From NCBI GenBank assembly GCA_014816185.1, contig GCA_014816185.1_4095.1: a stretch of 64,000 nucleotides of DNA, one strand, 5' to 3'. Of this stretch, positions 2,850 to 59,341 are shown in pieces. Each line of letters starts with the position of its first letter. Positions within the stretch are counted from its first letter, which is position 1. The stretch is from a phage. Both the position numbers and the translations under genes were made by a program. Under the pieces are notes generated by a model. It ran no database searches. It was not told the DNA's origin and saw only the letters and a list, made by a program, of their open reading frames with translations.

Positions 2850-2850
2850 A

Positions 2851-4107: not shown

Positions 4108-4118
4108 TACGAGCTTCC

Positions 4119-5396: not shown

Positions 5397-5409
5397 GGAG
5401 TATATCAAT

Positions 5410-6198: not shown

Positions 6199-6206
6199 TT
6201 AGATAA

Positions 6207-6240
6207 AATTAAAGCCACTACAATGTAGTGGCTTTTTTAT
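6207..6240. terminator. bidirectional terminator between convergent genes
   Basis: AGCCACTAC-AAT-GTAGTGGCT hairpin flanked by A-run and T-run. Confidence 0.6.
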
Positions 6241-40697: not shown

Positions 40698-40775
40698 AAT
40701 TCCTCCTTTATTCATTATACTATATTTAATACAAATAAGAAAGCCAGTACAAAGTACTGGCATAGTTTTATAGTA

Positions 40776-41885: not shown

Positions 41886-41956
41886 ATTTCCCTCCTTATT
41901 CATTATACTATATTTAATACAAATAAGAAAGCCAGTATCAAGTACTGGCCTATATT
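41886..41956 (-). promoter_or_regulatory. conserved terminator-promoter-SD cassette (representative)
   Basis: Minus-strand sense GCCAGTACTTGATACTGGC hairpin + TTTCTTATTTG, then ATATAGTATAATGAATAAGGAGGGAA + ATG; near-identical copies in 40698-40775, 42695-42765, 43909-43980, 45145-45216, 46405-46475, 47625-47695, 48836-48905, 51227-51297, degenerate at 39456-39527. Confidence 0.65.
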
Positions 41957-42694: not shown

Positions 42695-42765
42695 AATTCC
42701 CCTCCTTATTCATTATACTATATTTAATACAAATAAGAAAGCCAGTATCAAGTACTGGCGTAATG

Positions 42766-43908: not shown

Positions 43909-43980
43909 AATTCCCCTCCTTATTCATTATACTATATTTAATACAAATAAGAAAGCCAGTATCAAGTACTGGCATTCTTT

Positions 43981-45144
43981 TTAAAATGGTGAATCTATTA
44001 CAAATACTAAGCTATTAATACCACCATATGTGACATCAGCCCCAGTACTATATACAAAATTACCATCAGTTATATAAGTACGGTTATACCCACCTGACAT
44101 TTGTGATTTACTATAATCAAAACCATCAGGTACGATTGCTTTGGTATATACTAATGCGTTAGTAGATGTACCAACACCTAACATACCAGCTTGTGTTGAT
44201 TGGTTGTAGCCACAACAATATATACCATCTGTTGTAGCAATAACTTGGTTATAATATGAAGTATTATGGGCCATACTGAGTACATCACCTGGTGGCATTA
44301 GGGAAGCAGTTTGAACAGCAAATGCTCTTATATCAGTACTATTCACTCCATCTGCCTGTGCACCAAATCTTTTCGCCCCACCATTGGCAATTATGGTTTT
44401 TCCATTTGGATCAGTACCAATAGCCATCGCCATTGAATTGTTATTATTTACATAGTACTCGATATTAATTACACTCCTTAGACTCGTAGGAGCACTAGTG
44501 TATACTGTATATAGAGAAGTACCACTAGTGCTAATTGCATTGACACGGCCTGTATAGTATAACCAACCGTTAGCAGTAACATAACCATGCATTAGATTAC
44601 TTGCAAACAATTTAAATGGTAATTGGTCTTCTTCAGTAGAGACTGTGCTCTGGACGAATTTAGTATTAACGTTGTTAGTTGTTGTCCCATTACCTAACTG
44701 ACCTTCTGCCCCTGCCCCAGTACTCCATATTGTTCGATCTGAAAGTAATACACTTGTAGTCTGATTACTAACTGCCATATCTAATATTGGTAATGTTAAT
44801 GTATTGAATGTTGGCATAGCAGAAGTCCACACTGATACGGCTGCCCCTGTCATACCAACAGTAGTTGACGAACCACTGTACCATATTTCATTGTTGAATT
44901 TCTTAATAACCAAAGAAGTGGTACTTAACCAAAAATCTTCAACACCAGAAGTACTTAACGTCCATGTAGTAACGGTTTCTTTGTGACCTAAACCCAAAAG
45001 ACCATTTGAATTCTGACCACGTACATATAAATCCCCACTGCTTGTTAAAACTGCAACGTTGTAGTTATTGGCGAGTATTTTTTTAAATTTCGGTGGTGCT
45101 GGTGCTATATTCCCGTACTTAACCATTCTTGCAAAAGGTAACAT
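43981..45144 (-). CDS. RCC1-like repeat protein, MLPF family
   Basis: GQNSNGLLGLG, GAGAEGQLGNG; C-terminus LVFVIDSPF. Confidence 0.75.
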   Translation of the reverse strand: MLPFARMVKYGNIAPAPPKFKKILANNYNVAVLTSSGDLYVRGQNSNGLLGLGHKETVTTWTLSTSGVEDFWLSTTSLVIKKFNNEIWYSGSSTTVGMTGAAVSVWTSAMPTFNTLTLPILDMAVSNQTTSVLLSDRTIWSTGAGAEGQLGNGTTTNNVNTKFVQSTVSTEEDQLPFKLFASNLMHGYVTANGWLYYTGRVNAISTSGTSLYTVYTSAPTSLRSVINIEYYVNNNNSMAMAIGTDPNGKTIIANGGAKRFGAQADGVNSTDIRAFAVQTASLMPPGDVLSMAHNTSYYNQVIATTDGIYCCGYNQSTQAGMLGVGTSTNALVYTKAIVPDGFDYSKSQMSGGYNRTYITDGNFVYSTGADVTYGGINSLVFVIDSPF

Positions 45145-45216
45145 AATTCCCTCCTTTATTCATTATACTATATTTAATACAAAAAGAAAAGCCAGTACTG
45201 AGTACTGGCTATTATA

Positions 45217-46404
45217 TTATAATTGTCGGGGTGTATCTAGTACATATCTAGTTGTACTAGGACCACCATCATCATAAGTTCCGGTTGAATATATATTTTT
45301 CATATCAGTTAGAAATGTACGATATGAACCTCTATATATTTTTATTTTATCATACATAGAATATGTTATTTGTGTAGGCATTGGACATGCAGTAAACTTA
45401 CCAACAGTTGCACTAGTACCAATACCCAATGAACCAGCATAACTACTGGCATTTAAACCAGTTGCATATACACCAGTACTCGTAATTAGTATACTAGATT
45501 GTGGTGGGTATCCAGTATGAATTGAATACAAAGTACCGGGTGGTAACGTAGTACTGTTATTTCCTAAAACTCCATTAACAGAGCTAGATGTAGTGTTATT
45601 TCCCCATGCCCCATTATTAGCTAACCCACCGACAAGGAACTGACGTGCTCCTGTATTTGGATTTTCAACTAAAGCACTTACTGCACCAGTTGAGCATCCT
45701 GTGTATTGTAACGTTTTTGTGTATGTTGTACTTGGTTGATATAAAGTATATTCATTATATGAAGTCCATGTAGTCGCGGAACTTATACCGGATGTAACAC
45801 CACCAATATATAAATTATTTTGTTTATCAAACATCAATACACAGTTATTTGTTGACTGTATTTGTGCAATATCAACATTAGGTGTGACCGCTTTTACAAA
45901 TGAACCATCGGTTATTTCATAAGTAGTTCCCGTTCCATCGGCGAATTGTCTAGCACTGTTCCACCCTGTACTCCATATTGTATTATTATCCATTAATACC
46001 GTAAACCACGTAGTACCTCCATACATCTGTTTAATTGAAGTACTTGAACTTTGTGTGTACAAATTTTCAATATATTGGTTATAACTTAAAAACGTAGTAG
46101 TACTTGTTGGTAAACCAATATGAGAACCATATCCACAATAAAAATAATTTAAGTCATTGTCTTTTACTAATAAAGTTCCTTGTGTAAGCCAGCAATCGTT
46201 AACGTTTTCTCTAATTAATGTCCATGATTTTAATGCAGTGTTGTTTCCTCTACCGAATTTCCCAAAACTATTATTCCCACGTGCATATAGTTGACCATCC
46301 GTATACAGAACCACAACATCTAAATCAGTTGGGATTATTTTCTTAATTTGAAGTGGTACTGGGGCAATATTCCCATAATTCATCATTCTTGCAAAAGGTA
46401 ACAT
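45217..46404 (-). CDS. RCC1-like repeat protein, MLPF family
   Basis: N-terminus MLPFARMMNYGNIAP; repeat-rich Gly/Asn/Thr composition. Confidence 0.7.
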   Translation of the reverse strand: MLPFARMMNYGNIAPVPLQIKKIIPTDLDVVVLYTDGQLYARGNNSFGKFGRGNNTALKSWTLIRENVNDCWLTQGTLLVKDNDLNYFYCGYGSHIGLPTSTTTFLSYNQYIENLYTQSSSTSIKQMYGGTTWFTVLMDNNTIWSTGWNSARQFADGTGTTYEITDGSFVKAVTPNVDIAQIQSTNNCVLMFDKQNNLYIGGVTSGISSATTWTSYNEYTLYQPSTTYTKTLQYTGCSTGAVSALVENPNTGARQFLVGGLANNGAWGNNTTSSSVNGVLGNNSTTLPPGTLYSIHTGYPPQSSILITSTGVYATGLNASSYAGSLGIGTSATVGKFTACPMPTQITYSMYDKIKIYRGSYRTFLTDMKNIYSTGTYDDGGPSTTRYVLDTPRQL

Positions 46405-46475
46405 AAATTCCTCCTTTATTCATTATACTATATTTAATACAAATAAGAAAGCCAGTATCAAGTACTGGCATTAAA

Positions 46476-47624
46476 TCATTGTATAAATGACATATCAACT
46501 TCTGTATAACTAAGAATGTTTTGTCCAGCAATTCCCCCCATTACTACCATAGCATACCCACAATAATATAATTGCTCAGTGTCCGTAAGTATAAGTGAAC
46601 CAGATGGAGTGCGTACCAAATTACACGAACTATTAAACGAAGTATACGAAGGAGTATATGAGTACTGATTAATATTATTACCAACACCTAATTGACCAAA
46701 TCCATTCGACCCAGATGCGTATAGAACTTCATCACCTTTAGCTATATGTGATGCCATGTTACTAACACACGTATATAGAGTATAAACTCCTGAACTCAAT
46801 AATGTCGGAGTTTTGTATTGTATATCGGTAGATGAAGAAGTACCACCTGTGCCAAATTCGTTCCCGTATTGTGCACCGAACTGTTTACCACAAGCGTACA
46901 AATTATTATCCGATTTAATAAAAAATGTACTTTGATAACTTACATCAAAATCTATAACATCCGAAGCAATCATCGTCACCCCAGTAATAGAAGTTTGATT
47001 ACCTGTACCTAACTGATAGTAATAGTTAAAACCACAACCCCATAAAGTATTATCTTCTTTTAGGTATATGTTACCAACTGCCTTTTTAACCGAAGTTATA
47101 GTATCTACCCTTTTGAATGTGTTAAAAGAATTAATGTTTGTACCATCACCAAATGATGATAGGTTCGAGTTATTGTTAACTCCACAACAATACAACGTAC
47201 CATCGTTTGTTATCAAATTCACCTTCATATCATTAAAACTACTCATGTATTTTATATCAGAAACATTAATACCACCTGATGTTATCCACGTAGTACAGTC
47301 CGTCCACAAAGTTTTTGTATCAGTTACACCAGTGAATGCCTTCGTGTTACCAGTGATAAAAACTTTTCCAGTACCTTTCTCTTCATACAATTGACAACTA
47401 CTACTGTTATCTTCCAATAGAACTCGTTTAACATTCTCCGCACAAAGAATAAATTTACTCGATGCTACACCTGTACCAGTACCCCAATTCGTCGCAGAAG
47501 ATGCATACAACTTATTAGTATAAGTATCATGAAGATACATAGAATCACTTGAATATATTTTAAAACGCCTATCCTTACCAGGGGCAATATTCCCATAATT
47601 CATCATTCTTACAAAAGGTAACAT
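46476..47624 (-). CDS. RCC1-like repeat protein, MLPF family
   Basis: GFNYYYQLGTG, GSNGFGQLGVG. Confidence 0.75.
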   Translation of the reverse strand: MLPFVRMMNYGNIAPGKDRRFKIYSSDSMYLHDTYTNKLYASSATNWGTGTGVASSKFILCAENVKRVLLEDNSSSCQLYEEKGTGKVFITGNTKAFTGVTDTKTLWTDCTTWITSGGINVSDIKYMSSFNDMKVNLITNDGTLYCCGVNNNSNLSSFGDGTNINSFNTFKRVDTITSVKKAVGNIYLKEDNTLWGCGFNYYYQLGTGNQTSITGVTMIASDVIDFDVSYQSTFFIKSDNNLYACGKQFGAQYGNEFGTGGTSSSTDIQYKTPTLLSSGVYTLYTCVSNMASHIAKGDEVLYASGSNGFGQLGVGNNINQYSYTPSYTSFNSSCNLVRTPSGSLILTDTEQLYYCGYAMVVMGGIAGQNILSYTEVDMSFIQ

Positions 47625-47695
47625 ATTTCCCTCCTTTATTCATTATACTATATTTAATACAAATAAGAAAGCCAGTACAGTGTACTGGCATTATA

Positions 47696-48835
47696 TTATT
47701 TCCACGGTAGAAGTGAATCAGGAACCCTTGTTGGTACAGTAGTTGAAGACATTCCAGTAAGATTGGGTACACCACATGTGTATAAATTATTATATTCGTC
47801 AACTAACATCGTATAAGAATAGCTCTTACAAAAACTACTAAGATTACTACCTTCTAATGCAGTAAGATCCATTTCAGCGAATGATGTTATATACATATCA
47901 GTTGTACCAATACCACATTGACCATTTGAATTAAGGCCACATGAAAATAACTTATTATTATTATTAATTATACAGGATGGTCCGGTAAGGTTTGTCCCAA
48001 GCTCACCCACCAACTCCACTTCTCCTTGGAATGATAAATTTGGAATTAATGTACTCATTGGGGCTACTGACCTATTTCCTGTACCTGCTTGTCCATAGTC
48101 GTTAATAGATGCAACTTTAACATTACCATCATTAAGAAATATATAAGAAGTTTCATTTGTATTGACTGCTTTAATTGCATTACTAATCGAAGTATCTTGT
48201 GTAAATGTGAGCAAGTTTTGTGTCGTCGTTCCTGATACAAACGTTCTACCTGCATACCAATATGAACCATCATTTAGTACTAATCCAGTACTATATATTG
48301 CACAACCAGCACTGATAACATTTTCTATTGTACTATAGGTGAATCGTGAAACGCTTGAAGTTGATCCATTCCCAAAAACACCACCAGTACCAGCACCACA
48401 GTAGAACCACTTTCCATTTTTTAAAAATACACGCATACACGAAGATATCACAACACTATCAATATCATCTGCACTGACACCGAAATCAGTAAAGTTCTGT
48501 GTTATATCAACCCAAACGCCGTTAGTGTTTGAAGATAGTATTGGAATAACAGTACGTCTACCAGTGTACCAAATAGTACCATCTTTCTTTATAGCAATTG
48601 TTCCTTGTACCCCACCCCAATATCGTGTAACATTTGAGTTGACAAGAGTCCATTCAGTTGAAGAGTCCAATGAACCATTACCACTTTGTCCATATGCTGA
48701 AGAACCAAACCAATATAGATTGCCATTTGTGTGTAAATAAAATTTGGCATCAGCAGAACATTGTAACCTGTTTTTAGGTAGAATCAGTTCAGGTGCGATA
48801 TTCCCGTACTTAACCATTCTTGCAAAAGGTAACAT
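47696..48835 (-). CDS. RCC1-like repeat protein, MLPF family
   Basis: Start set at MLPFARM (track ORF extends into cassette); GLNSNGQCGIG. Confidence 0.7.
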   Translation of the reverse strand: MLPFARMVKYGNIAPELILPKNRLQCSADAKFYLHTNGNLYWFGSSAYGQSGNGSLDSSTEWTLVNSNVTRYWGGVQGTIAIKKDGTIWYTGRRTVIPILSSNTNGVWVDITQNFTDFGVSADDIDSVVISSCMRVFLKNGKWFYCGAGTGGVFGNGSTSSVSRFTYSTIENVISAGCAIYSTGLVLNDGSYWYAGRTFVSGTTTQNLLTFTQDTSISNAIKAVNTNETSYIFLNDGNVKVASINDYGQAGTGNRSVAPMSTLIPNLSFQGEVELVGELGTNLTGPSCIINNNNKLFSCGLNSNGQCGIGTTDMYITSFAEMDLTALEGSNLSSFCKSYSYTMLVDEYNNLYTCGVPNLTGMSSTTVPTRVPDSLLPWK

Positions 48836-48905
48836 ATTCCCTCCTTTATTTGTTATACTATATTTAATACAAATAAGAAAGCCAGTACTCTGTACTGGCA
48901 TTATG

Positions 48906-50015
48906 TTATTTTGGTAAATCAATTTTAGTAAAGACTGCAACATCCTCGATTGCACCTGGAATGGCGTAATACGATCCAGTACTATACACATCTCCATTTT
49001 TGGTTAATATCGATGTCAAACCATCACTAAAAAGAACATCCCTAATCTCACTAACTTCAACGGGTAATTGTAAATTGGTAGCACTATATATAGCACCAGT
49101 TTGAGAATTGTTTAATCCCAAACCACGGTTCGCCCCAACACCCTTCTGATATGTACTAGTAATTACCATTTGTGTAGCAGTATTTAAGGCAGGTGAATTC
49201 GTCATAAACAACGGAGAACTATTAGGCAAAGTACTTAAAGGAACTGCACGGAATGTAGTCGTACCTGAACTAAGAAAGTTTGGAGTTTGACCACATACGA
49301 AATATGATGTACCATTATAGTAATTTAATGCATTACCACCAATGGCTGCATCGATTACACCAGAACTACGCAATCCCCAAGTGTTAATTTGTGTTTGGTT
49401 CCCCGTACCATGCTGCCCACTACTATTCCATCCAGAACTATATAGCTTATTATCTAATGTAAGATACATACTATCATTCGCATTGGTCATTACTTTACGA
49501 ACGTTCGTAGCACATTGAGTTAATGTGTAAATTGATGATGAACCAATACCCAAAGAACCACGATATCCATTATCTCCTGCACCATAGAGTACTGAATTAG
49601 TGCTAAGTACAAATATTAAACCATTTGTACATACAATATTAGCAATTTCACTTACTGGTATAGCATTGGTAAACCAATTAGTTCTTTCAACTAATACAGT
49701 ACTGTAAGAAGTAGTTGTAGAAGATGAGAACCAGTACGTTTGACCTGATGTCCATATCGTATTATCATTTTTAATAATAACAAGTGTACGATCACCCACG
49801 AAAAAATTAGAAACATCTGCACTTACTAATGTCCACGAAGACACCGTGTTGGTATTACCATTTCCAGATTCACCACCTTGATTTCTACCTATGTAATATA
49901 AATCATGTGAATCAGTCAATAAGAATTGGCCTTGGGTAGAAGCACCAACTTTAATTATTTTTTTAGGACCAGGGACAATATTTCCATACATAATCATTCT
50001 TCCAAAAGGTAACAT
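48906..50015 (-). CDS. RCC1-like repeat protein, MLPF family
   Basis: Start at MLPFGRM; GWNSSGQHGTG; only 8 nt from upstream gene stop, no cassette. Confidence 0.7.
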   Translation of the reverse strand: MLPFGRMIMYGNIVPGPKKIIKVGASTQGQFLLTDSHDLYYIGRNQGGESGNGNTNTVSSWTLVSADVSNFFVGDRTLVIIKNDNTIWTSGQTYWFSSSTTTSYSTVLVERTNWFTNAIPVSEIANIVCTNGLIFVLSTNSVLYGAGDNGYRGSLGIGSSSIYTLTQCATNVRKVMTNANDSMYLTLDNKLYSSGWNSSGQHGTGNQTQINTWGLRSSGVIDAAIGGNALNYYNGTSYFVCGQTPNFLSSGTTTFRAVPLSTLPNSSPLFMTNSPALNTATQMVITSTYQKGVGANRGLGLNNSQTGAIYSATNLQLPVEVSEIRDVLFSDGLTSILTKNGDVYSTGSYYAIPGAIEDVAVFTKIDLPK

Positions 50016-50023
50016 ATTCCCTC

Positions 50024-51226
50024 CTATTGTTGCCATAACTGCGATGGCATTAATGTTAGTGTAGTAATACTATAAGTGCCATCTGGCAATCTACCACCAT
50101 TTCCATTCCAGCCACCACATGCATATAATTTATAATCTTTAGTAATTATTATGGTTCTGCTCCAATCTTTAGATGCCATAAGAACATTGTCATAACCACC
50201 ACTTATTGCACTAAGATTAAAAATATTCCAAGTTCTAACTAATGTATTAGTTCCATTACCTTCTTGACCATATGAGTTAGCACCACTACTTCTAACATAT
50301 GGTGCGTATTGTGCCATAGGTGCACCAATTGATGCATTTCCCATATTACTTGGACAAATAAAAGTACTGTACTTACTTACATCAACCGTGACCGATGTGT
50401 TCCTAATTGGTGTTAGCTGATTTACCGATGTAGTCGTACCATTACCAGCTTGTCCAGAACTGTTAGCCCCGCTATAATATACAGACCCACCAGTAGTAAA
50501 CCACCAAGTAACATCGTATGTAGTACTAATATGTTCTACATTACTAATCACGAATTTGTTCAAATATACAACAGAACTACCACCACATCCACTTTCACCA
50601 AAGTTATCCTTACCACAAAACCATGCATCTTTATTTGATTTGATATAGTGCGTTCCTTGTAATGAACATGCCATATGTGTAACTTCACCCATATTAGTCA
50701 TAACTGTGAGTGTAGGGATGGAATTTTTATTCCCAGAGCCACATTCACCATTAGTATTTCTTCCACACGCAATTACTCTACCATCGGTTAATAATATTCT
50801 AGTACTTTCACCTATATATACACTCTTGATCATATTAGCCATAACACCTATTTTATTAAATGCAACAGTAACATCAGTCCATGTTGTCAAATAACCATTA
50901 ACAGGTGTTGCATCTCCATAATCAGAAAATGCACCAACCGACCCAGTGTAGTATATTTTATTATCCAAATCAATCATCAATGAACCTTGAACACCAAGCC
51001 AAAAGGCTGCACAGTTCCTTGCAAGTACTGTAAATGACGAAACTGCTGCTGAATTCCCAAGACCAAATTGATAAAAGTTATTACTACCATAACCATATAA
51101 AGTATTAGTTGGGTTATGGAGATACATACAGTTTGTATAATGTTGTTGTAAAACATCTGAGAACTCTACAGGTTCTGGACCTGGTGCAATATTTGCGTAC
51201 TTAACCATTCTTCCAAAAGGTAACAT
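50024..51226 (-). CDS. RCC1-like repeat protein, MLPF family
   Basis: GSNNFYQFGLG, GRNTNGECGSG, GANSSGQAGNG, GANSYGQEGNG. Confidence 0.75.
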   Translation of the reverse strand: MLPFGRMVKYANIAPGPEPVEFSDVLQQHYTNCMYLHNPTNTLYGYGSNNFYQFGLGNSAAVSSFTVLARNCAAFWLGVQGSLMIDLDNKIYYTGSVGAFSDYGDATPVNGYLTTWTDVTVAFNKIGVMANMIKSVYIGESTRILLTDGRVIACGRNTNGECGSGNKNSIPTLTVMTNMGEVTHMACSLQGTHYIKSNKDAWFCGKDNFGESGCGGSSVVYLNKFVISNVEHISTTYDVTWWFTTGGSVYYSGANSSGQAGNGTTTSVNQLTPIRNTSVTVDVSKYSTFICPSNMGNASIGAPMAQYAPYVRSSGANSYGQEGNGTNTLVRTWNIFNLSAISGGYDNVLMASKDWSRTIIITKDYKLYACGGWNGNGGRLPDGTYSITTLTLMPSQLWQQ

Positions 51227-51297
51227 ATTTCCCTCCTTTATTCATTATACTATATTTAATACAAAAAGAAATGCCAGTATCAAGTACTGGCATAATA

Positions 51298-52476
51298 TTA
51301 TCGGTTAAATTTAAAATCTGTTATGTGTGTCCATGTATGATTTAATGGTGTACTCAATGGTGTAAAGCCAGCAGGGTCTGACCACGTTGAACCACATGCG
51401 TACATAAATTGATTGCCAGTACAATCCATTATAGCATAAGAACGTGTTGCTGTACCACATTTGAATCCAACTGCACTACTTGGGGTCGGTAATACTTCAA
51501 ATGTAGGTGCATTTGAAGTATTACCCCCATTTTTTGTTCCAGCTATGTACAGAACTCCATTAGTATCAATGATTAAGTTAGTCCAATATGCTTGTTCTCG
51601 ACCAGCATAAAAATATGTTAAATCACCGGGTACAAATGGTAACGTACCTTTATATAGTGTAGTATTAACATCCACTGGTGCTCCAGATACACCCCATGAA
51701 CTCATATAGTTTCTCCCACTTGCGTAGAATGTAGTTCCTTTACCGTAAAGTATTAATGATGCATGACTTGTTCGCATTGCATTATATTCAAACTCAGGAT
51801 CATCAGTAGCGTCCTTAAAAATCTGTGTCCATGTTGTTATATAGCCAGTAGTTGTAACACCCATTTGATAATAATAATTATCACCAGTAGCATAGAATTG
51901 TTTAGGGCCAGTTTGTACAATTGCATTCCTATTAGTTAACCAAAAATCTAATGTATTAGTCATGATCTTGGTGGGTGTGAAATTCGCCACGGTATTTCCT
52001 TTTCCGAAATAACCCTTAGCGTTATCTCCATGACCCCATAAATCACCATTAGTTGTGCGTAGGAATAATGTACCAGAATTGAATACAACTTTTTCTATAG
52101 TACTTATATCAATACCAACAGAAGTGTAATTCGTTGTAAAATCTTGAAAAGTACCCCAAAAATTAGATGAACCATTAAACATGACTTGACTACCAGTGTA
52201 CTTCACTTTATTATCTTTAGTGATAAGTAATGTCCCCCACGATGCCGCGAACATTAACTTAACATTTTCCATAACAAAGTATGGCTTACCGTATGCTGAC
52301 GCGGTAGAGTTCAAACCTAATAGTTGTCTATTATTACTACAACCCCATACTTCGCCGTTATCCAAAAGCATCAACATAGTAGGTTTACCAGATAATACAG
52401 ACAAAAAGAAATCTTTTGGTGTTGGTACACCAGGTGCAATATTCCCATAATCAAACATTCTAACAAAAGGTAACAT
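51298..52476 (-). CDS. RCC1-like repeat protein, MLPF family
   Basis: First gene of the array; MLPFVRMFDYGNIAP; divergent promoter region 52477-52579. Confidence 0.7.
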   Translation of the reverse strand: MLPFVRMFDYGNIAPGVPTPKDFFLSVLSGKPTMLMLLDNGEVWGCSNNRQLLGLNSTASAYGKPYFVMENVKLMFAASWGTLLITKDNKVKYTGSQVMFNGSSNFWGTFQDFTTNYTSVGIDISTIEKVVFNSGTLFLRTTNGDLWGHGDNAKGYFGKGNTVANFTPTKIMTNTLDFWLTNRNAIVQTGPKQFYATGDNYYYQMGVTTTGYITTWTQIFKDATDDPEFEYNAMRTSHASLILYGKGTTFYASGRNYMSSWGVSGAPVDVNTTLYKGTLPFVPGDLTYFYAGREQAYWTNLIIDTNGVLYIAGTKNGGNTSNAPTFEVLPTPSSAVGFKCGTATRSYAIMDCTGNQFMYACGSTWSDPAGFTPLSTPLNHTWTHITDFKFNR

Positions 52477-52579
52477 AATTCCCTCCTTTATTCATTATAT
52501 CATATTTACCTCCTAAAGAAAACCCTTGACACCCTTTCAGTACTGGTGTACTATAGAAGGAATATAAGGAGAACTGTAC

Positions 52580-52807
52580 ATGACAACTACACTTAAGTAC
52601 TACATTAATACTCTAAATGAACTAGAGTACGCGAAGTTTCTCGCGGATAGTTCGTGGCTAATTGAGCTAAAAACACATAACAGTACTGGATGTAACCTTA
52701 TGCTGAACAATGCACTTGATACCCTTGTAGTGAGTATTTTACACAGCAACATCTGCGGGAATAGCAATAAACAATTATCAAAAATCTTAGTACTGGTAGC
52801 TCTATGA
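52580..52807 (+). CDS. small protein, array member (divergent)
   Basis: AAGGAG SD; TTGACA-N17-TACTAT promoter upstream; KYYINTLNELEY N-terminal motif. Confidence 0.55.
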   Translation: MTTTLKYYINTLNELEYAKFLADSSWLIELKTHNSTGCNLMLNNALDTLVVSILHSNICGNSNKQLSKILVLVAL

Positions 52808-53016
52808 ACACTATGAACATTGAACAGTACTACATCGATGCACTACCAACAAAAGGTCTACGAGAAAGCCTACTGTATACACAAAATAATTATATAAACT
52901 TCAAACATTGTCCTAAACTCTTGAACTCGTACAGGAATAATAAAATAAGAAATGCTGTACAAGGGGTAGAAAGTATGCAATACTATTACATCCTAACCCT
53001 TTTAATCGAGCACTAA
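52804..53016 (+). CDS. small protein array paralog
   Basis: MNIEQYYIDALP; ATGA overlap. Confidence 0.55.
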   Translation: MNTMNIEQYYIDALPTKGLRESLLYTQNNYINFKHCPKLLNSYRNNKIRNAVQGVESMQYYYILTLLIEH

Positions 53017-53017
53017 T

Positions 53018-53203
53018 ATGTATAAAGAATTCTACTGTAGTAAGCTGCACAAACAATACAGAGATTCATTTCCAAATGAACCTATGGATATGAATAGTCC
53101 CTTTTATAAATTTGACTTCAGACTGGAGACACGTTATGCAATAGAACATCAATTTCCTGAAACTAAGTACTTATCTATCATGAACCTCATCTTTAAGTTC
53201 TAA
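53018..53203 (+). CDS. small protein array paralog
   Basis: MYKEFYCSKL. Confidence 0.55.
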   Translation: MYKEFYCSKLHKQYRDSFPNEPMDMNSPFYKFDFRLETRYAIEHQFPETKYLSIMNLIFKF

Positions 53204-53214
53204 AAGAGTACTAT

Positions 53215-53427
53215 ATGAAAACTATGAACATACACCAGTACTACTTAGATATTCTCCCTAAAGATGTACAGTTCATCCTTAAACAAGAATACAGTACTTT
53301 AAAAAACCTTAAAAGAACCGCACCGAATGTATTAATCCTGCACCAAGAAAATGTAGTTGATAATATTCTACAAGGTGTACCAGGGACCGAGTACTTTAAC
53401 ATAATAAGGCTAATTACATTACCATGA
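53215..53427 (+). CDS. small protein array paralog
   Basis: MNIHQYYLDILP. Confidence 0.55.
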   Translation: MKTMNIHQYYLDILPKDVQFILKQEYSTLKNLKRTAPNVLILHQENVVDNILQGVPGTEYFNIIRLITLP

Positions 53428-53609
53428 ATCATATATTATACTATTACCAAAATCTATCCGACAGGGACAAGTACACCCACAACTCCAATGTATGGTACTA
53501 CAAACGCGGTAGTATAAGAGACAAACAACATTACTTCTGTATTGCTATAAAAGAAGCACTAACAACTAAGTACACGTACAGAGCAGTACTGAAACTTATT
53601 GATATGTAA
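53424..53609 (+). CDS. small protein array paralog
   Basis: ATGA overlap; C-terminus YRAVLKLIDM. Confidence 0.55.
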   Translation: MNHILYYYQNLSDRDKYTHNSNVWYYKRGSIRDKQHYFCIAIKEALTTKYTYRAVLKLIDM

Positions 53610-53619
53610 AGAGAATACT

Positions 53620-53802
53620 ATGAGCATTGAATTGTACTTAAGTAAATTACAGCCTGGCGATAGATTCATCTACAATAAGTTCGAATTCAACTACAAGAAC
53701 GGGAGCAACAAATATCGTCGAGGATACCTATATACAAGCACAAGAGATGCACAAAACGAAAAGTACACATACAGAGAAGTACTTAAACTAATCTCTATTT
53801 GA
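53620..53802 (+). CDS. small protein array paralog
   Basis: Start moved to MSIELYLSKL; C-terminus YREVLKLISI. Confidence 0.5.
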   Translation: MSIELYLSKLQPGDRFIYNKFEFNYKNGSNKYRRGYLYTSTRDAQNEKYTYREVLKLISI

Positions 53803-53810
53803 GGTAATAT

Positions 53811-53996
53811 ATGAATACATTTGAGTACTATACCAATAAACTATCTATGCCTGAAAGATCTCATCTCTATGTGTGGAGAAATGCGTATAAAAGCGGCAAT
53901 AAACTTATACAAAGAAATTCCCTTACAGTGTGTACAAATTTAATTAAAGCAGAGTACCGCACATATATTGAAGTACTCAAACTGATAGCAATATAA
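53811..53996 (+). CDS. small protein array paralog
   Basis: MNTFEYYTNKL; C-terminus YIEVLKLIAI. Confidence 0.55.
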   Translation: MNTFEYYTNKLSMPERSHLYVWRNAYKSGNKLIQRNSLTVCTNLIKAEYRTYIEVLKLIAI

Positions 53997-54004
53997 GGTA
54001 CTCT

Positions 54005-54184
54005 ATGCAAGAATTCTATATCTATAACCTCCAGCACAAAGATAGATACAACTATAATAAATTCCAAAGGTACTACACAGTCGGGAACAAAAGAGATAAA
54101 AAACGTTATCTACTCTCGTGTACAGTAGAAGCACAAAACGAAAAGTACACGTACAGAGAAGTACTTAAACTAATCTCAATCTAA
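54005..54184 (+). CDS. small protein array paralog (59 aa)
   Basis: Missed by ORF track; MQEFYIYNL...EKYTYREVLKLISI with AAGG SD. Confidence 0.5.
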   Translation: MQEFYIYNLQHKDRYNYNKFQRYYTVGNKRDKKRYLLSCTVEAQNEKYTYREVLKLISI

Positions 54185-54191
54185 GGTAGAC

Positions 54192-54380
54192 ATGAACACT
54201 TTTGAGTACTACTTCAATAAACTAAACCACATAGAACAAAGTATGCACAACTCATTTATTCAGCACCATCAATCATCTGCACATGGAATTAAAAATATAT
54301 CGATTGAGATTATCACTACCCGTGTACTGTCATCTGAACGTTATATGTATATTGATGTACTGAAACTCATCTCTATGTAA
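54192..54380 (+). CDS. small protein array paralog
   Basis: MNTFEYYFNKL; C-terminus YIDVLKLISM. Confidence 0.55.
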   Translation: MNTFEYYFNKLNHIEQSMHNSFIQHHQSSAHGIKNISIEIITTRVLSSERYMYIDVLKLISM

Positions 54381-54388
54381 GGAATAAT

Positions 54389-54568
54389 ATGCAAGAATAC
54401 TATATAGAACACATAAGCATTAAAGACCGTTTCATGTACGACACCTTCGTGAAGTACTACAACCTGGCAACTAATAGTACTAAAAATATTAATCTCAATA
54501 GCTGCATTCATCACGCACTAACAAAAGATAATCCCTTCAGGGAAATCCTCGCTCTCGCATCTGTATAA
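54389..54568 (+). CDS. small protein array paralog (59 aa)
   Basis: Missed by ORF track; MQEYYIEHIS...LNSCIHHAL... with AAGGAA SD. Confidence 0.5.
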   Translation: MQEYYIEHISIKDRFMYDTFVKYYNLATNSTKNINLNSCIHHALTKDNPFREILALASV

Positions 54569-54578
54569 AGGAAACCAA

Positions 54579-55238
54579 ATGAAACTTAATGCACACAGCA
54601 AACAATACCTTAAGCACTTTAAGTACCTCAACAGTATTCAAGCAGAATCTATTACATCTGCATATACGTATCACCCAAATGTACTAAAGAAACGAAATAA
54701 AAAGAAAAAATCCAGAAATGTTCTCGTATCTAAGAACCTCAAATCGTACTTGAAGAAAAATAATATAGCTCTTGCTTTTATTAATATCTATAATACTGAT
54801 TTAAAAGTATTGAGTACTAATACCAGCACAAAAGCACTAAAGAATGCATCTATCTATATACACATGGATAATATCCCGTGCACTATAATTCTATCTTTCG
54901 GGAATGTATACTTCTTCGGGAATTGTAATAGCACCCATGATATCAGTACTGCACAATTCCAAATCGGCGATATGTACTGCATGGGTTCAGAAAAAATACA
55001 CGATAACATGCACTTCTTCCAAAAGCAACGTACTAACGAAACTGATACAGTACTGCAATTCCTAAAAGAACTACAAAACAAAGAATTAACACCAGAAGAA
55101 GAATTCATGTACAGTACTGTAATCGATAATCCAGAACTCTATAAAAACGCGTACAATCTAACAAAACATGTACAGGAACTTATCAGTACTGATAAGAAAT
55201 TTCATCACCTCATTACGTATATTTCAAACTATGTATAA
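54579..55238 (+). CDS. hypothetical protein (219 aa) embedded in small-ORF array
   Basis: Longer ORF with Lys-rich segment; not obviously a family member. Confidence 0.55.
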   Translation: MKLNAHSKQYLKHFKYLNSIQAESITSAYTYHPNVLKKRNKKKKSRNVLVSKNLKSYLKKNNIALAFINIYNTDLKVLSTNTSTKALKNASIYIHMDNIPCTIILSFGNVYFFGNCNSTHDISTAQFQIGDMYCMGSEKIHDNMHFFQKQRTNETDTVLQFLKELQNKELTPEEEFMYSTVIDNPELYKNAYNLTKHVQELISTDKKFHHLITYISNYV

Positions 55239-55404
55239 AGAATTCTACCTCTCGTACCTTAATTCCGATATAGTAACATCCAATACCTTCAGTACTAAAA
55301 TTATCTATAATGAAGTAATGAAAGAATGTATTAAAGGTGCTATTAACCCTAAAGATACGTATGACTTGTACTATGCAGTACTAACCCTTGTTTTCACGAA
55401 ATAA
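55231..55404 (+). CDS. small protein array paralog
   Basis: Start moved to MYKEFYLSYL, overlapping upstream stop. Confidence 0.5.
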   Translation: MYKEFYLSYLNSDIVTSNTFSTKIIYNEVMKECIKGAINPKDTYDLYYAVLTLVFTK

Positions 55405-55412
55405 CACATAAT

Positions 55413-55604
55413 ATGAATAACCACAAAGAATACTACATAGAGAAACTCCCAATGTATCTCCAACACCTTGTACCAACAGAACCATTGCGTATAGAAAAAG
55501 ACTACGAAAAAGACTACTTCGTTAAGTGCACTAAATCCTCGATAGATATTGAGGACTATAATCGAGTACTGTATCACATCCTTTTACTAATATATAAGTA
55601 CTAA
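55413..55604 (+). CDS. small protein array paralog
   Basis: MNNHKEYYIEKLP. Confidence 0.55.
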   Translation: MNNHKEYYIEKLPMYLQHLVPTEPLRIEKDYEKDYFVKCTKSSIDIEDYNRVLYHILLLIYKY

Positions 55605-55605
55605 T

Positions 55606-55794
55606 ATGAATAACCACAAAGAATACTACACACAATTTCTCCCCAGTATTTTTGAACACTACGCCAGATATAAAGTCCCTCTGGATAACGATTTGGCAGT
55701 ACTGGGATTCAATAATTGCATAGAACGCAGTATAGAAAATAGTAGTAGCTATGACCAATTATATAACACTATCCTACTTATATTCAGGTACTAA
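55606..55794 (+). CDS. small protein array paralog
   Basis: MNNHKEYYTQFLP; FNNCIERSI. Confidence 0.55.
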   Translation: MNNHKEYYTQFLPSIFEHYARYKVPLDNDLAVLGFNNCIERSIENSSSYDQLYNTILLIFRY

Positions 55795-55795
55795 T

Positions 55796-55984
55796 ATGCA
55801 TAAAGAATACTACACAAAATATTTCCCAATGTACCTCAGTACTAATCTATTAGATAAACCTCGCGGTATCAATGCTCAAAACGATAAAGTGTACTTTACT
55901 ATGTGCACTAAAGCATGTATACTAGATTTTGATAGCTATCATCGAGTACTGTATCATACACTGTACCTAGCTTTCGTGTACTAA
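55796..55984 (+). CDS. small protein array paralog
   Basis: Start moved to MHKEYYTKYFP. Confidence 0.5.
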   Translation: MHKEYYTKYFPMYLSTNLLDKPRGINAQNDKVYFTMCTKACILDFDSYHRVLYHTLYLAFVY

Positions 55985-55994
55985 AGAGGCCAAT

Positions 55995-56201
55995 ATGAAC
56001 GAACAGAAAGAATTTTACACCAAACACCTCAGTGCATCAGAACAAATGTTTCTAAGGAGTGTATCACCTTTACGTTTAGATACACCACACGCCAGAGATT
56101 GCTTTAATAATTGTATACGTATTACTCTAGAAGCTTTAGAAAACAATAACAAAAATATTCAGTACTCAGGCGTAATGGGACTAATATTCTTCTATGAATA
56201 A
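55995..56201 (+). CDS. small protein array paralog
   Basis: MNEQKEFYTKHLSASEQMF; near-duplicate of 56575 copy. Confidence 0.55.
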   Translation: MNEQKEFYTKHLSASEQMFLRSVSPLRLDTPHARDCFNNCIRITLEALENNNKNIQYSGVMGLIFFYE

Positions 56202-56382
56202 CAAAGAATTCTACTTAAACCATCTGGAACTAAACTCCCAAATGCTTATACCACTAAACCCAATAGATATCAAGGATAAGAAAAATACCAAACAATTCCA
56301 CTACCACACACTATGTGCTATCAACCCAGATTATAATACATATAAACTGTACTACATTCTCGCCCTAATATACAGGTACTAA
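56194..56382 (+). CDS. small protein array paralog
   Basis: MNNKEFYLNHL; 8-nt overlap with upstream gene. Confidence 0.55.
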   Translation: MNNKEFYLNHLELNSQMLIPLNPIDIKDKKNTKQFHYHTLCAINPDYNTYKLYYILALIYRY

Positions 56383-56383
56383 C

Positions 56384-56569
56384 ATGCATAGAGAATACTA
56401 CACACAATTTGTTAAAGGGAACTACAAACACGCCGTCCCCGTAAACCCCTTAAATTCTAATGACCCAAGTACTATATTCTTGTTCCATGACGCAATACGT
56501 ACAGTACTCAATACTAAAGATGAACAGGTGCAGTACGTATTCTTACTATTACTTATATACAGACACTAA
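56384..56569 (+). CDS. small protein array paralog
   Basis: MHREYYTQFV. Confidence 0.55.
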   Translation: MHREYYTQFVKGNYKHAVPVNPLNSNDPSTIFLFHDAIRTVLNTKDEQVQYVFLLLLIYRH

Positions 56570-56574
56570 CTAAT

Positions 56575-56784
56575 ATGAATACAGAACATAAAGAATTCTA
56601 CTCCAAACACCTCAGCCCATCAGAACAAATGTTTCTAAGGACTACAGCACCTTTAAGTACTGATACATATTTCGGCAGAGTATGCTACAATAATTGTATT
56701 CAAATGACTTTAAACGCAAACGCCAATAATAACAGTACTAATATGTACTCCGGCATCATAGGTATACTATTTCTATATGAATAA
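56575..56784 (+). CDS. small protein array paralog
   Basis: MNTEHKEFYSKHLSPSEQMF. Confidence 0.55.
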   Translation: MNTEHKEFYSKHLSPSEQMFLRTTAPLSTDTYFGRVCYNNCIQMTLNANANNNSTNMYSGIIGILFLYE

Positions 56785-56959
56785 AGAACATAAAGACTTC
56801 TACATAAGAAAACTGACATTCGTCCCCGTAAAAATATATAAAGAATGCGACCCAAGATTATACCTATGGCACTTCAATGAGTGCATAAAAGATTCTATAT
56901 ACCCTAAGAACTACAAAGAACAATTGATCTCAGTACTAACACTAGTACTATCATATTAA
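56777..56959 (+). CDS. small protein array paralog
   Basis: MNKEHKDFYIRKL; FNECIKDSI. Confidence 0.55.
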   Translation: MNKEHKDFYIRKLTFVPVKIYKECDPRLYLWHFNECIKDSIYPKNYKEQLISVLTLVLSY

Positions 56960-56972
56960 TAGAGATAATACT

Positions 56973-57164
56973 ATGCATAAAGACTATAAAGAGTACTATA
57001 TAAGTAAACTAAAAGAAAACGAACAAGCATGGGTTAACAATTTAATCCCCCTGGCAATGACTCAATACGAATTTAATATGTGTACAAAGATTGTTTTAAC
57101 TAGTAATGATATCTCTAATACGTACTACTTCCTATTAAGAGTACTATATGGTACTTTGAAATAA
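56973..57164 (+). CDS. small protein array paralog
   Basis: MHKDYKEYYISKL; FNMCTKIVL. Confidence 0.55.
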   Translation: MHKDYKEYYISKLKENEQAWVNNLIPLAMTQYEFNMCTKIVLTSNDISNTYYFLLRVLYGTLK

Positions 57165-57175
57165 TAAGGTATACT

Positions 57176-57382
57176 ATGCAGAACATAAAAAACTATAAAG
57201 AGTACTATATAAGTAAACTACCACCGACTGACCAAGCATGGATTAGATCTATAATAGTACTGGCATTTAATAGATATGCATTTAATAGATGTACCGAGAT
57301 TGCTATAGACCCTTATAATATTAAAGAGAATGTACAGCATAATCAGTACTACTATATGTTAATGCTTATATATAGGAAGTAA
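57176..57382 (+). CDS. small protein array paralog
   Basis: MQNIKNYKEYYISKL; FNRCTEIAI; last member. Confidence 0.55.
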   Translation: MQNIKNYKEYYISKLPPTDQAWIRSIIVLAFNRYAFNRCTEIAIDPYNIKENVQHNQYYYMLMLIYRK

Positions 57383-57504
57383 TTCAACATATAGACAGGG
57401 GAAGCTCCGCAGGGAAAGCATTGGACAGGCTTTAACATATGTTATATATGTTAAAATTCAGCCTGGACAAATGCGATCACTAGGATTCTCCCCAGGCTAA
57501 ACCC

Positions 57505-57785
57505 CGTAATCATATGTAGTCATAAGTAATCATATATAAACATTTAAGTAATCATTTATAATCACAGTAGTGATCAGTATTGAGTACTAGAGTGTAATAG
57601 AGTACAGGAATGTGCACGTTTAATCAAGAACGTAGCAGTACTGCCCCAAAAGTATTCAGTACTGAAGGTGGCGATATCCCACTAAGTAGGCAGAGGAAGT
57701 CTGCCGTACTTTGTAGTTTCCAAGCTCCTTTTCCATTTTGCAAATTACATCAAATGTAATCAAAAGTAATCACGCAATGATTAGT
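57505..57785. repeat. cluster of GTAATCA short repeats with inverted copy
   Basis: GTAATCA recurs at least five times (about 57506, 57526, 57548, 57756, 57766) plus inverted repeat TAATCACGCAATGATTA. Confidence 0.5.
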
Positions 57786-58048
57786 ACTGAATTATTACTT
57801 TCACCTTAATTTCAATTACCCTTTTACCCTTCGGGGTAAAATTCAATTACCCCTTGAGGCTCCAGCAAAAAGTTGGTTAGTACTCCATCCTAAATCTCGA
57901 TCCTAAAAATTTTGGAGTACCTATGAAATAAAAGTTGGATCTTCGAAAGTTGAAATTTACGTTGGGACGTTTATGATTTGTGGGATATAATGATGTTTGT
58001 AGTCGGGTAGTTCTCAAGAATATCAGTACTGAAAGATGAAAGAAAGTT

Positions 58049-58077
58049 ATTGACTTTATGATTCAGTACTGTATAAT
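58049..58077 (+). promoter_or_regulatory. orphan sigma70-like promoter
   Basis: TTGACT - 17 nt ending in CAGTACTG - TATAAT with no ORF of 60 aa or more downstream. Confidence 0.45.
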
Positions 58078-58473
58078 GTTCTACATAGCTTCAAGGGGTG
58101 ATGAGTTGCTGCGAACAATTCATTTACTCTACCTCCTGTCGTGAGACAGTACAGAAAAGATAGTTCCTCCTGTGGTGGTACATCTTTTTGAACCTCATAT
58201 GAAAATCGTAATAACAGTACTGATATTAACAGAATGGTATCAGTACTGATTTTAATCTAAAGCATTATGCCACCAGCTTGTGCTGGTGGATTCCCTCTAA
58301 CAGTATTCAGTACTACATGATAGTCTTCATCCTCCTAGGGTAACATAGTGAGGGCTATGATGGCAGTACTGAATACTCCCTTTCAAAAGATAGATCTATG
58401 GTATAGTACTGACGGATTTTGGGTGTAGTTACCCTGGATGGATTTTGGACGTAGATATGTCTAGCCCTCCAGA

Positions 58474-58600
58474 AGTCTGGAAGTAAAGATGGCTATCCAT
58501 CTAGACGGCTAAACGGCTAGATTTCTGGATGGCTGGATGGCTAGACGTTTGGACGGCTAAACGTCTAGATGGTTACACGTCTGGAAGTATAGACGGCTAA
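58474..58600. repeat. dense array of CTAGACG / GGCTAAACG short direct and inverted repeats
   Basis: GTCTGGAAGTA flanks both ends; internal CTAGACGTTT-N7-AAACGTCTAG inverted repeat; GGATGGCT and GGACGGCTAAACG units. Confidence 0.5.
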
Positions 58601-58779
58601 ATCAAAATTTTATTTTGTTTTTTCCAATAGTTCCCCTACCGCGTGGGGATAGTTTCCCCGCAGTATCTGGAGTTAGATTTTTCTGAATCTGGAATCATTA
58701 TCTTATAAACTGGGGGCAATGTCAACGGCCTGGACGGATATTTTTAAAAATTTTTTCAGTACTGAATTTTGGGCGTAAC

Positions 58780-58840
58780 TATGCACCCGGTGGGCTTGAG
58801 TCTTTCTCGACTTGATGGAACTATTATACAGTACTGGAAA
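58780..58840. repeat. intergenic repeat TGCACCCGGTGGG...CAGTACTGG, copy 1
   Basis: Shares TGCACCCGGTGGG(C/T)TTAG ... TTGATG ... ATTAT.CAGTACTGG with copies near 60928 and 63348. Confidence 0.5.
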
Positions 58841-59223
58841 AATAAAGCAATACCCTGGATGAAAAAAGTTTTAATTAATTTGCTTGCTATCCTGGGCCGG
58901 ACTATGGTACTATATTTCAGTACTGAGAAAGTGCGTTAACCTGCTAGGGTGCGGGAGTGTATCCTTTTTAAATTTTATGAATTTTGGACGGATCTTCCCA
59001 CCCCCTGGGGTATCCGCTTTCTCGCGTCTATGTAGTAATTATACGCTTTTTTAGTACTGAGTCAATAGCTAAAAACAAAATAATTGAAAATAATTTAACG
59101 CGTTTAAACGGCCTGTAACGCCCTGGATTGTTGGGAGTGGTGCAAATGTATAGCTTAGGTGTATTAATGCGTTAGAATGCGATTGAGGCCGTTTTACGGG
59201 GTGTAGTAGTGATTTGGTTGATT

Positions 59224-59310
59224 CAGTACTGAATAATAGTACTCCTATATAGAAAGATAGTTCCCCTGGATGGTTGCAGTACTGAATAATAGTACTCCTA
59301 TATAGAAAGA
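59224..59310. repeat. 34-bp direct repeat, two copies
   Basis: CAGTACTGAATAATAGTACTCCTATATAGAAAGA at 59224-59257 and 59277-59310. Confidence 0.6.
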
Positions 59311-59341
59311 AAACTATTTTAAAAGTATTTGTAGAAAGTAC

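Follow-up and report, generated by a model that had tools for sequence, protein, structure and literature searches.

Genes 37–60 of phage SPO1 and the early hyperplastic regions of T4 comprise many small lineage-specific genes that lie behind strong host-type early promoters and whose products bind host proteins. In T-even phages, small anti-defence proteins are multiplied at plastic loci through short-homology recombination, as described for tifA against toxIN (PMC9391042) and for SegB-driven amplification (PMC13096335). The jumbo phage G of Bacillus carries ∼35 zinc-ribbon proteins, a lineage-specific expansion in which a very small protein was multiplied in tandem and which has been interpreted as genome growth through tandem duplication (Iyer et al. 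2021, PMC7824862; Hua et al. 2017, PMC5646251). The locus considered here occupies positions 52580-57382, plus strand, of a 64,000-nucleotide (nt) stretch of phage DNA (contig GCA_014816185.1_4095.1 of assembly GCA_014816185.1; this whole stretch is referred to as the window). It consists of 21 genes arranged head to tail, each encoding a protein of 57–75 amino acids (aa), with one non-family gene of 219 aa in between. The 21 paralogs are one family made via repeated tandem duplication, and this family occurs at a single locus in each genome and in one genus only, Asteriusvirus (the 121Q/PBECO4 group). The genomes of jumbo phages are composed mostly of 'hypothetical' genes, and this locus provides a tractable case, in a phage of E. 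coli, for studying how such genomes grow and what their extra genes do.

The homology of the 21 proteins is evident from several comparisons. An all-against-all phmmer search links 64 of the 210 member pairs at E<=0.01, against 0–5 pairs in 20 residue-shuffled sets. The members align well beyond compositional bias, the point on which an earlier reading made from the letters of the DNA (the sequence-only reading) had staked its claim of a family, and the shuffle control rules out a compositional artefact as the source of the similarity. At the same phmmer threshold all 21 members form one connected component whose weakest link is member 1, and a family hidden Markov model (HMM) recovers 21/21 at E-values of 5e-13 to 9e-22; applied to the six-frame translation of the window, this model detects no further members. 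Paralog-to-paralog identity is 18–40%. The deep tandem amplification of one tiny protein put forward by the sequence-only reading is upheld by significant homology, a common strand and a repeat period in the DNA: the units recur at start-to-start distances of 184–205 nt and their best DNA homology is found at the gene junctions, in stretches of 24–64 nt that include the C-terminal tail, the stop codon, the Shine-Dalgarno (SD) motif, the ATG and the KEYY motif. This concentration of DNA homology at the junctions suggests unequal recombination at these sites.

Three subgroups are discernible within the family: subgroup A (members 5–10, with a tail ..Y.Y.EVLKLISI), subgroup B (members 3 and 11–21, KEYY...LLLIYRY) and subgroup C (members 2 and 4). 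The shared pattern initially proposed holds in part. The N-terminal (K)E(Y/F)Y, with an invariant second Tyr, and the hydrophobic C-terminal tail are conserved, as is L12, but the central F..C motif is present in the majority of members only. The proposed single conserved Cys had to be given up: the members contain 0–2 Cys residues, with none in four window members and two in five, and no Cys is invariant. The genes of the array are as follows, with E-values referring to the family HMM and genome counts to the comparison of 15 genomes described further below.

52580-52807 (+): member 1, 75 aa, the most divergent paralog; E 4.9e-13; orthologs in 13 genomes
52804-53016 (+): member 2, 70 aa, subgroup C together with member 4 (pair at about E 1e-9); E 1.1e-15
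53018-53203 (+): member 3, 61 aa, subgroup B; E 7.1e-19
53215-53427 (+): member 4, 70 aa, subgroup C, a variable cassette (6/15 genomes); E 7.4e-15
53424-53609 (+): member 5, 61 aa, subgroup A (tail ..YTYRAVLKLIDM); E 2.1e-18; ratio of nonsynonymous to synonymous substitution rates (dN/dS) 0.16
53620-53802 (+): member 6, 60 aa, subgroup A, near paralog of member 8 (about E 1e-17); E 2.6e-18
53811-53996 (+): member 7, 61 aa, subgroup A, a variable cassette (7/15 genomes); E 1.5e-18
54005-54184 (+): member 8, 59 aa, subgroup A; E 6.4e-18
54192-54380 (+): member 9, 62 aa, subgroup A, a variable cassette (7/15 genomes); E 5.1e-19
54389-54568 (+): member 10, 59 aa, subgroup A; E 3.7e-17
54579-55238 (+): 219-aa ORFan (phrog_29152), outside the family; same position in every array examined
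55231-55404 (+): member 11, 57 aa, its start overlapping the 219-aa gene by 8 nt; E 9.4e-14
55413-55604 (+): member 12, 63 aa, subgroup B, the member modelled below; E 1.4e-20
55606-55794 (+): member 13, 62 aa; E 5e-19; dN/dS 0.12
55796-55984 (+): member 14, 62 aa; E 3.8e-16
55995-56201 (+): member 15, 68 aa, recent paralog of member 18 (about E 1e-26; 74% DNA identity over 201 nt); E 8.7e-22
56194-56382 (+): member 16, 62 aa; E 1.3e-17
56384-56569 (+): member 17, 61 aa; E 5.3e-18
56575-56784 (+): member 18, 69 aa; E 2.6e-19
56777-56959 (+): member 19, 60 aa; E 3.3e-15
56973-57164 (+): member 20, 63 aa, a variable cassette (4/15 genomes); E 1.1e-18
57176-57382 (+): member 21, 68 aa, the final gene of the array; E 4.3e-18; orthologs in 14 genomes

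All 21 tandem plus-strand genes that the sequence-only reading had announced, including the two of 59 aa at 54005-54184 and 54389-54568, are present as open reading frames (ORFs). The overlaps between neighbours that it described are also present, but its spacing of 0–12 nt proved too narrow, as the junctions range from an overlap of 8 nt (-8) to a gap of 13 nt (+13). For three members (53620, 55231 and 55796) the sensible start is an internal ATG rather than that of the longest ORF, and the annotation of phage WPEC5 uses exactly the counterparts of these three starts. An SD-like motif is found in 11 members, and the remaining ones start 1 nt past the preceding stop or overlap it: these tight or overlapping junctions and SD-less members suggest a gene-to-gene coupling of translation across the array.

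The distribution of the family was surveyed with a range of databases. Pfam returned only sporadic single-member matches (E>=0.007), the PADLOC defence HMMs only isolated single-member matches (E>=0.0027), and a sequence-profile search of the PDB no match at E<=1. A k-mer-seeded search of 5.8 billion proteins produced 43 matches. When 1.84 billion cluster representatives were scanned exhaustively with the HMM, 34 matched, all of them 59–75 aa long. The most divergent match corresponds to Asteriusvirus records of Escherichia and Salmonella alone. With 49 diverse members in a second-iteration profile, no match beyond Asteriusvirus appeared, and a search of IMG/VR with the 219-aa gene as bait returned only phage 121Q itself. 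Within the complete genome of phage TH47 (352 kilobases, kb) every significant match of the family HMM falls in one locus. The existing database family that comes nearest is PHROG 11711, of unknown function, whose profile picks up 12 of the 21 members (best E 1.9e-27). A Pharokka-style annotation of SHEFM2K tags the same genes. PHROG 11711 is restricted to subgroup B, missing subgroups A and C and member 1, and the array had not been presented as one family. As the other nine members have no match at E<=0.01, the family is wider than PHROG 11711.

The window itself, which is ∼34% guanine plus cytosine and dense in small genes, contains one tRNA-Thr and no other Rfam match. Its best match is the Asteriusvirus jumbo coliphage BF17, at 98% identity, and the matching records number 36, all Escherichia or Salmonella phages of 310–386 kb, including 121Q, PBECO4, phAPEC6, G17 and SP27. 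The locus was compared between the window and 14 other genomes, 15 in all, with members detected by the HMM and orthologs grouped at 60% identity. The copy number of the array varies from 15 to 24, and a conserved order can be written, with optional cassettes in round brackets, as 1 2 (15/18) 3 (4) 5 (6/8 7 6/8 9) 10 [219 aa] (x2 11) 12 13 14 (15/18) 16 17 (15/18 x3 19 20) 21. Single cassettes have been gained, lost or moved within this order. The occurrence of orthologs in conserved order across genomes indicates that the paralogs are older than the divergence of the phages compared.

Selection on the paralogs is purifying but relaxed. Pooled over 20 ortholog groups dN/dS is 0.46, with a range of 0–1.2 among groups and values below 1 in 18 of the 20; the two groups near 1 both have a proportion of synonymous differences (pS) below 0.05, which makes the estimate noisy. 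Five downstream flanking genes have dN/dS of 0.11–0.30, the RCC1-like genes on the other flank being left out of this comparison as confounded by paralogy. The term 'diversifying' that the sequence-only reading applied to the family implies ongoing positive selection and is not supported in that wording: the paralogs are old, as their 18–40% identity attests, the orthologs are kept and the pooled ratio is the one just given. Reading frames are intact in all verified genomes. CMSTMSU and TH47, both flagged UNVERIFIED, have split members, a pattern consistent with frameshift sequencing errors.

Phage JNE01 has a strongly diverged form of the locus. Its array (extracted locus 2755-6710) keeps the architecture, with five members, a gene of ∼220 aa and ten further members. 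These members are 31–59% identical to those of other phages and its 219-aa homolog ∼40%, against 83–100% identity in the flanks. Synonymous divergence in the array is saturated (dS ∼1.3, against 0.05–0.35 in the flanks) and omega is 0.37. Fast protein evolution or an adaptive burst behind this divergence is ruled out, as dS is saturated too. The saturation of synonymous along with protein divergence instead indicates that the whole module is an old, deeply diverged allele or a replacement, acquired through recombination between Asteriusvirus lineages.

The same data bear on the view that the ORFs have no function at the protein level and that the region is kept as DNA, for example as AGTACT-dense or repetitive filler by which the genome is enlarged to match the capsid. 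Tandem duplication has been proposed by Hua et al. as a route of jumbo genome expansion (PMC5646251), and the array has the highest AGTACT density of the coding segments of the window, with 8.5 sites per kb. However, verified genomes have intact frames, 18 of 20 ortholog groups show dN/dS below 1, the ratio is 0.37 even where dS is saturated, Y8 is invariant, yet AGTACT occurs at that motif in only 7 of 21 members, and the structure prediction presented below is confident. The filler view is largely refuted by the selection data and is considered most unlikely.

The AGTACT signal extends far beyond the array. There are 248 AGTACT sites in the window, and 41 in the array against 3.4 expected from dinucleotide shuffles; the longer word CAGTACTG occurs 60 times in the window, against 1 expected. 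AGTACT is densest at 52580-57382 and 57400-62400, the array being the densest coding region. In the TH47 genome it is by far the commonest palindromic hexamer, with 917 occurrences against 119 expected from base composition, and the commonest 8-mers are (T)CAGTACTG(A) words. Where the coding context permits AGTACT, ∼49% of contexts use it against 12% expected from codon usage, in all three frames. These figures point to genome-wide DNA-level selection that is not specific to the array, with AGTACT serving for example in binding, modification or regulation. A by-product of AGTACT is not what the invariant Tyr represents, the site being present at that motif in only 7 of the 21 members. A literature search on AGTACT over-representation in bacteriophage found nothing relevant; this selection at the codon level suggests an unrecognised DNA-level system in Asteriusvirus phages.

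The structure of member 12 was predicted by AlphaFold2 with a 61-sequence family alignment, giving a predicted local distance difference test (pLDDT) score of 90.4 and a predicted template modelling (pTM) score of 0.74. In this confident model the fold is a compact helical mini-domain: two short N-terminal helices (residues 4-9 and 14-17) are followed by a variable, extended loop (18-29) and a C-terminal helical hairpin (30-45 and 49-62). Aromatic or aliphatic residues predominate at the positions conserved among paralog groups (Y7/Y8, L12, F36, L/I44, Y53, I/V56, L57, L59, I60 and Y63), with T/I40 and A43 in addition. These positions are read as a hydrophobic core, a reading that derives from their conservation. 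Variability within ortholog groups is spread along the protein, several of its top values lying in the loop and where helix 3 begins (approximately residues 22-31, within the stretch of about 18-31), and the whole can be read as a fixed scaffold with a variable surface.

The 19-residue Kyte-Doolittle hydropathy reaches a maximum of 1.13 across the members, below the usual cut-off of ∼1.6, so that no member has a transmembrane segment of the kind expected in membrane proteins of the holin, superinfection-exclusion or immunity type, and the members are predicted to be cytoplasmic, non-membrane proteins. Their isoelectric points (pI) span 5.5–9.6, members 5–8 of subgroup A being basic (pI 9.4–9.6), and Tyr makes up 10.3% of residues. 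Paired CxxC/CxxH metal ligands, looked for as a sign of a zinc ribbon, are absent in all members. A Foldseek search with the model of member 12 gave a best E of 3.8 in the PDB, and matches in BFVD to the family itself only. The paralogs could also co-assemble into a larger hetero-oligomer, non-covalent and solenoid-like in its helical repeats, perhaps with the 219-aa protein; this is thought very unlikely.

Putative control elements lie at the two ends of the array:

52526-52554 (+): sigma70-type promoter TTGACA-N17-TACTAT with CAGTACTG in the spacer, the sole strong promoter-like site upstream of the array
52566-52571 (+): Shine-Dalgarno sequence AAGGAG, 8 nt upstream of the start codon of gene 1, conserved across relatives
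57392-57499 (+): conserved structured element immediately 3' of the array, with an RNA fold of -40.6 kcal/mol and z = -5.0

The promoter and AAGGAG lie in the 103-nt gap between the first RCC1-like gene, on the minus strand, and member 1. This control region is nearly identical in 13 of the 15 genomes; in the other two, member 1 was missed by gene detection and the sequence extracted upstream is therefore not the intergenic region. The TTGACA-N17-TACTAT promoter that the sequence-only reading had pointed out is found at its place and conserved in these 13 genomes, and it faces away from the RCC1-like array as had been suggested, being a single sigma70-like site in a divergent control region. 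Promoter-like and terminator-like sites within the array are no commoner than in shuffles. With one upstream promoter, no excess of internal promoter or terminator signals and a structured element after the last stop, the locus looks like one polycistronic operon of 22 genes, comprising the 21 paralogs and the unrelated 219-aa ORFan.

The inner hairpin of the 3' element retains its pairing through different sequences in WPEC5, slurp01 and JNE01, and the arms of the inner stem, which vary between phages, include ACATATGT, ACAATT and ACATCT. That the stem differs in sequence among phages and yet stays self-complementary suggests a functional hairpin at 57392-57499, possibly a transcript end or a processing site. 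The array promoter belongs to a class defined in the window by TTGAC-N-AGTACT-N-TANNNT, with 7 sites against 0.04 expected. This phage-specific class has TTGAC(A/T), followed after 8–12 nt by (C)AGTACT(G) directly before a TATAAT-like -10 element, and its sites are located at 15540, 19852, 30205, 52526, 58050 and 60820 on the plus strand and at 60962 on the minus strand.

The RCC1-like array next to the locus (39528-52476, minus strand) is organized differently. Eight of its 11 paralogs are preceded by a near-identical cassette of ∼70 nt, for instance at 51227-51297, composed of a hairpin (GCCAGTACT-TGAT-ACTGGC) with a T-run, then TATTAAATATAGTATAATG, then AAGGAGG. The duplicated RCC1-like unit thus carries its own terminator, promoter and ribosome-binding site, and the RCC1-like genes are probably expressed individually. 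The several match places per record obtained in the DNA search probably correspond to copies of this promoter cassette and not to extra arrays.

The proximity of the two arrays invites the explanation that the small proteins serve the phage itself, as specificity adaptors, chaperones or regulators of phage components that exist in many copies, the 11–13 RCC1-like virion proteins next door for instance, or as nucleic-acid-binding regulators on the AGTACT-rich genome. The small-gene and RCC1-like arrays adjoin in every genome examined and have a common divergent control region, each paralog is conserved individually, as would be expected for fixed partners, members 5–8 have the basic character described above, and AGTACT is under strong DNA-level selection throughout the genome. 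However, copy numbers do not obviously track each other (15 annotated RCC1-like coding sequences and 16 small genes in 121Q, ∼11 and 21 in the window), the majority of members are near neutral, without any recognisable DNA-binding motif, and the promoter/terminator cassettes of the RCC1-like genes are of a different type, suggesting separate regulation. A role inside the phage is accordingly judged unlikely.

Another explanation has the small proteins packaged inside the head or injected, and delivered with the DNA. The internal proteins of T4 are an example of small injected proteins. An inner-body-like bubblegram pattern in 121Q (PMC5646251) and the virion association of the neighbouring RCC1-like proteins also speak for packaging. 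In the virion proteome of phAPEC6, however, which comprises 62 proteins identified through tandem mass spectrometry with electrospray ionization (ESI-MS/MS), the RCC1-like gp549 and gp551 are present and the annotated array members gp540c-gp548c are absent, though a protein of 4.7 kDa was detected there (PMC7247149). In addition, the array promoter is sigma70-like, unlike the cassette that precedes the virion RCC1-like genes. Packaging is considered a highly improbable explanation.

The explanation preferred here, tentatively and at a little short of an even chance, is that the array encodes early-expressed cytoplasmic proteins that would bind host or defence proteins, each paralog having its own target. 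Host RNA polymerase would transcribe the array early in infection from the conserved sigma70-like promoter, translation would be coupled from gene to gene, and the products would act in the host cytoplasm as small binders built on a common scaffold. The paralogs would differ in the host or defence target, or in the variant of a single target, that each recognises, and the role would be one in host takeover or counter-defence. The effector or inhibitor role suggested by the sequence-only reading is thus plausible. The locus fits this class circumstantially: it is plastic, and its products are small, restricted to the lineage and not found in virions. The distant relative PA5oct depends on host RNA polymerase, has TTGAC/TATAATA promoters and expresses early genes that mostly encode uncharacterised proteins (PMC7318152). 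The T-even amplifications of small anti-defence genes (PMC9391042, PMC13096335) provide a precedent. A literature search and the genome papers checked yielded no transcriptome or proteome of an Asteriusvirus infection.

Several observations weigh against host-directed binders. Absence from the phAPEC6 virion proteome is weak evidence, as only 9 of 18 members are annotated in that phage, early timing is deduced from a match to the promoter consensus, and overall selection is purifying, not positive. Furthermore, the same genomes carry a second array, of at least 22 small proteins unrelated to the family: in the light of this array, the lineage may expand its genome quite generally by amplifying small genes, and the amplification would then not be the sign of an arms race.

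This second array was observed in TH47 (MT446416), where a family designated 'LGTNYQE' comprises at least 22 genes for proteins of 63–91 aa at 81659-87364 and 67033-67224, ∼19–25 kb beyond the locus; a 10-member family of 103–164 aa is found nearby. The 'LGTNYQE' array resembles the studied one in occurring in the same genomes, in gene size and in its head-to-tail arrangement, and differs in being unrelated in sequence (hhalign probability 0.6%) and in lying outside the window. Hua et al. 2017 devote one unspecific sentence to an array of '>30 very similar genes' in 121Q (PMC5646251). As 121Q has only 16 members of the studied family, the sentence probably refers to the 'LGTNYQE' array instead. 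Eleven RCC1-like genes were noted in phAPEC6 by Wagemans et al. 2020 (PMC7247149). The papers on Sharanji, fEgEco12 and UE-S1 do not mention the locus, and a description of the array was not found in the Asteriusvirus papers checked.

A bolder form of the host-directed explanation regards the array as a hard-wired set of inhibitors with ∼20 specificities on a new mini-fold, each neutralising a different host defence or housekeeping protein or allele, with whole-array alleles such as that of JNE01 exchanged between phages as host-range modules. This is rather unlikely; if true, no larger counter-defence family built on a single fold would be known from a phage. That the correct explanation lies outside all those discussed here is regarded as quite unlikely.

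The 219-aa gene is a constant companion of the array, situated between the member-10 type and the member-11/12 types that follow it in every array examined. The sequence-only reading had called this gene (54579-55238) unrelated, and rightly so: a kinship suspected from the C-terminal '..HHLITYISNYV' is ruled out by profile–profile comparison with hhalign. It belongs to phrog_29152, which is found in Asteriusvirus only, its product has no match in a Pfam search, and its AlphaFold model is unusable (pLDDT 40). The gene is split into fragments in SD-1_S14. Its dN/dS of 0.48 is like that of the array, and it is treated here as part of the module.

Other parts of the window show further features of interest. 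Additional small paralog sets occur on the plus strand among the genes for 100–150-aa proteins between 1 and 38000 (927/1345/2851, 20332/21083, 28524/28872 and 35566/35895), where tandem duplication appears from the sequence to be a general habit of the genome region. Downstream of the array, ∼1.7 kb (57383-59060) contain no convincing ORFs and are unannotated in 121Q too. This interval has 12 CAGTACTG sites, strong promoter-like sites at 58050 (+), 58725 (-) and 59065 (-), and an iteron-like block at 58470-58600 with an 8-nt periodicity and GGATGGCT/AGACGGCT/AAACGTCT units; it could be a replication origin or a regulatory hub. Beyond it, two 79-aa paralogs at 59880-60119 and 61918-62157 (+) share the motifs GHKNKTHWNVSLWINN...TPDGFKYSTTAIRAAMVGM and are highly conserved across phages, with dN/dS of 0.11 and 0.30.

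The locus has practical value as well. In relatives the array genes are annotated as hypothetical or missed altogether: 12 of 22 are annotated in BF17, 5 of 18 in PBECO4 and 9 of 18 in phAPEC6, and the deposited annotation of CMSTMSU also omits a large share. The family HMM would improve annotation, since many deposited genomes miss a large part of the array. In copy number and alleles the locus varies naturally among sequenced isolates, of which there are more than 15. Should its products prove to be host-directed binders, they would constitute a ready panel of ∼20–50 naturally occurring versions of one scaffold, and each might lead to a distinct host target or defence system.

Set against the systems introduced at the outset, the array is a lineage-specific tandem expansion of a small phage protein, an event of a known kind, with a predicted fold without detectable relatives. 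It shares tandem growth with the phage G expansion, but the two are not homologous: the phage G proteins are Cys-rich zinc ribbons, whereas the family described here is predicted to be all-helical, with 0–2 Cys and no CxxC pairs. The T-even amplifications are recent, near-identical, unstable and selected for dosage. In contrast, the copies in the array are ancient, at 18–40% identity, individually conserved and without known anti-defence activity. Finally, the host-takeover modules of SPO1 and T4 are made up of mostly unrelated genes, whereas the Asteriusvirus locus assembles 21 paralogs of one fold.

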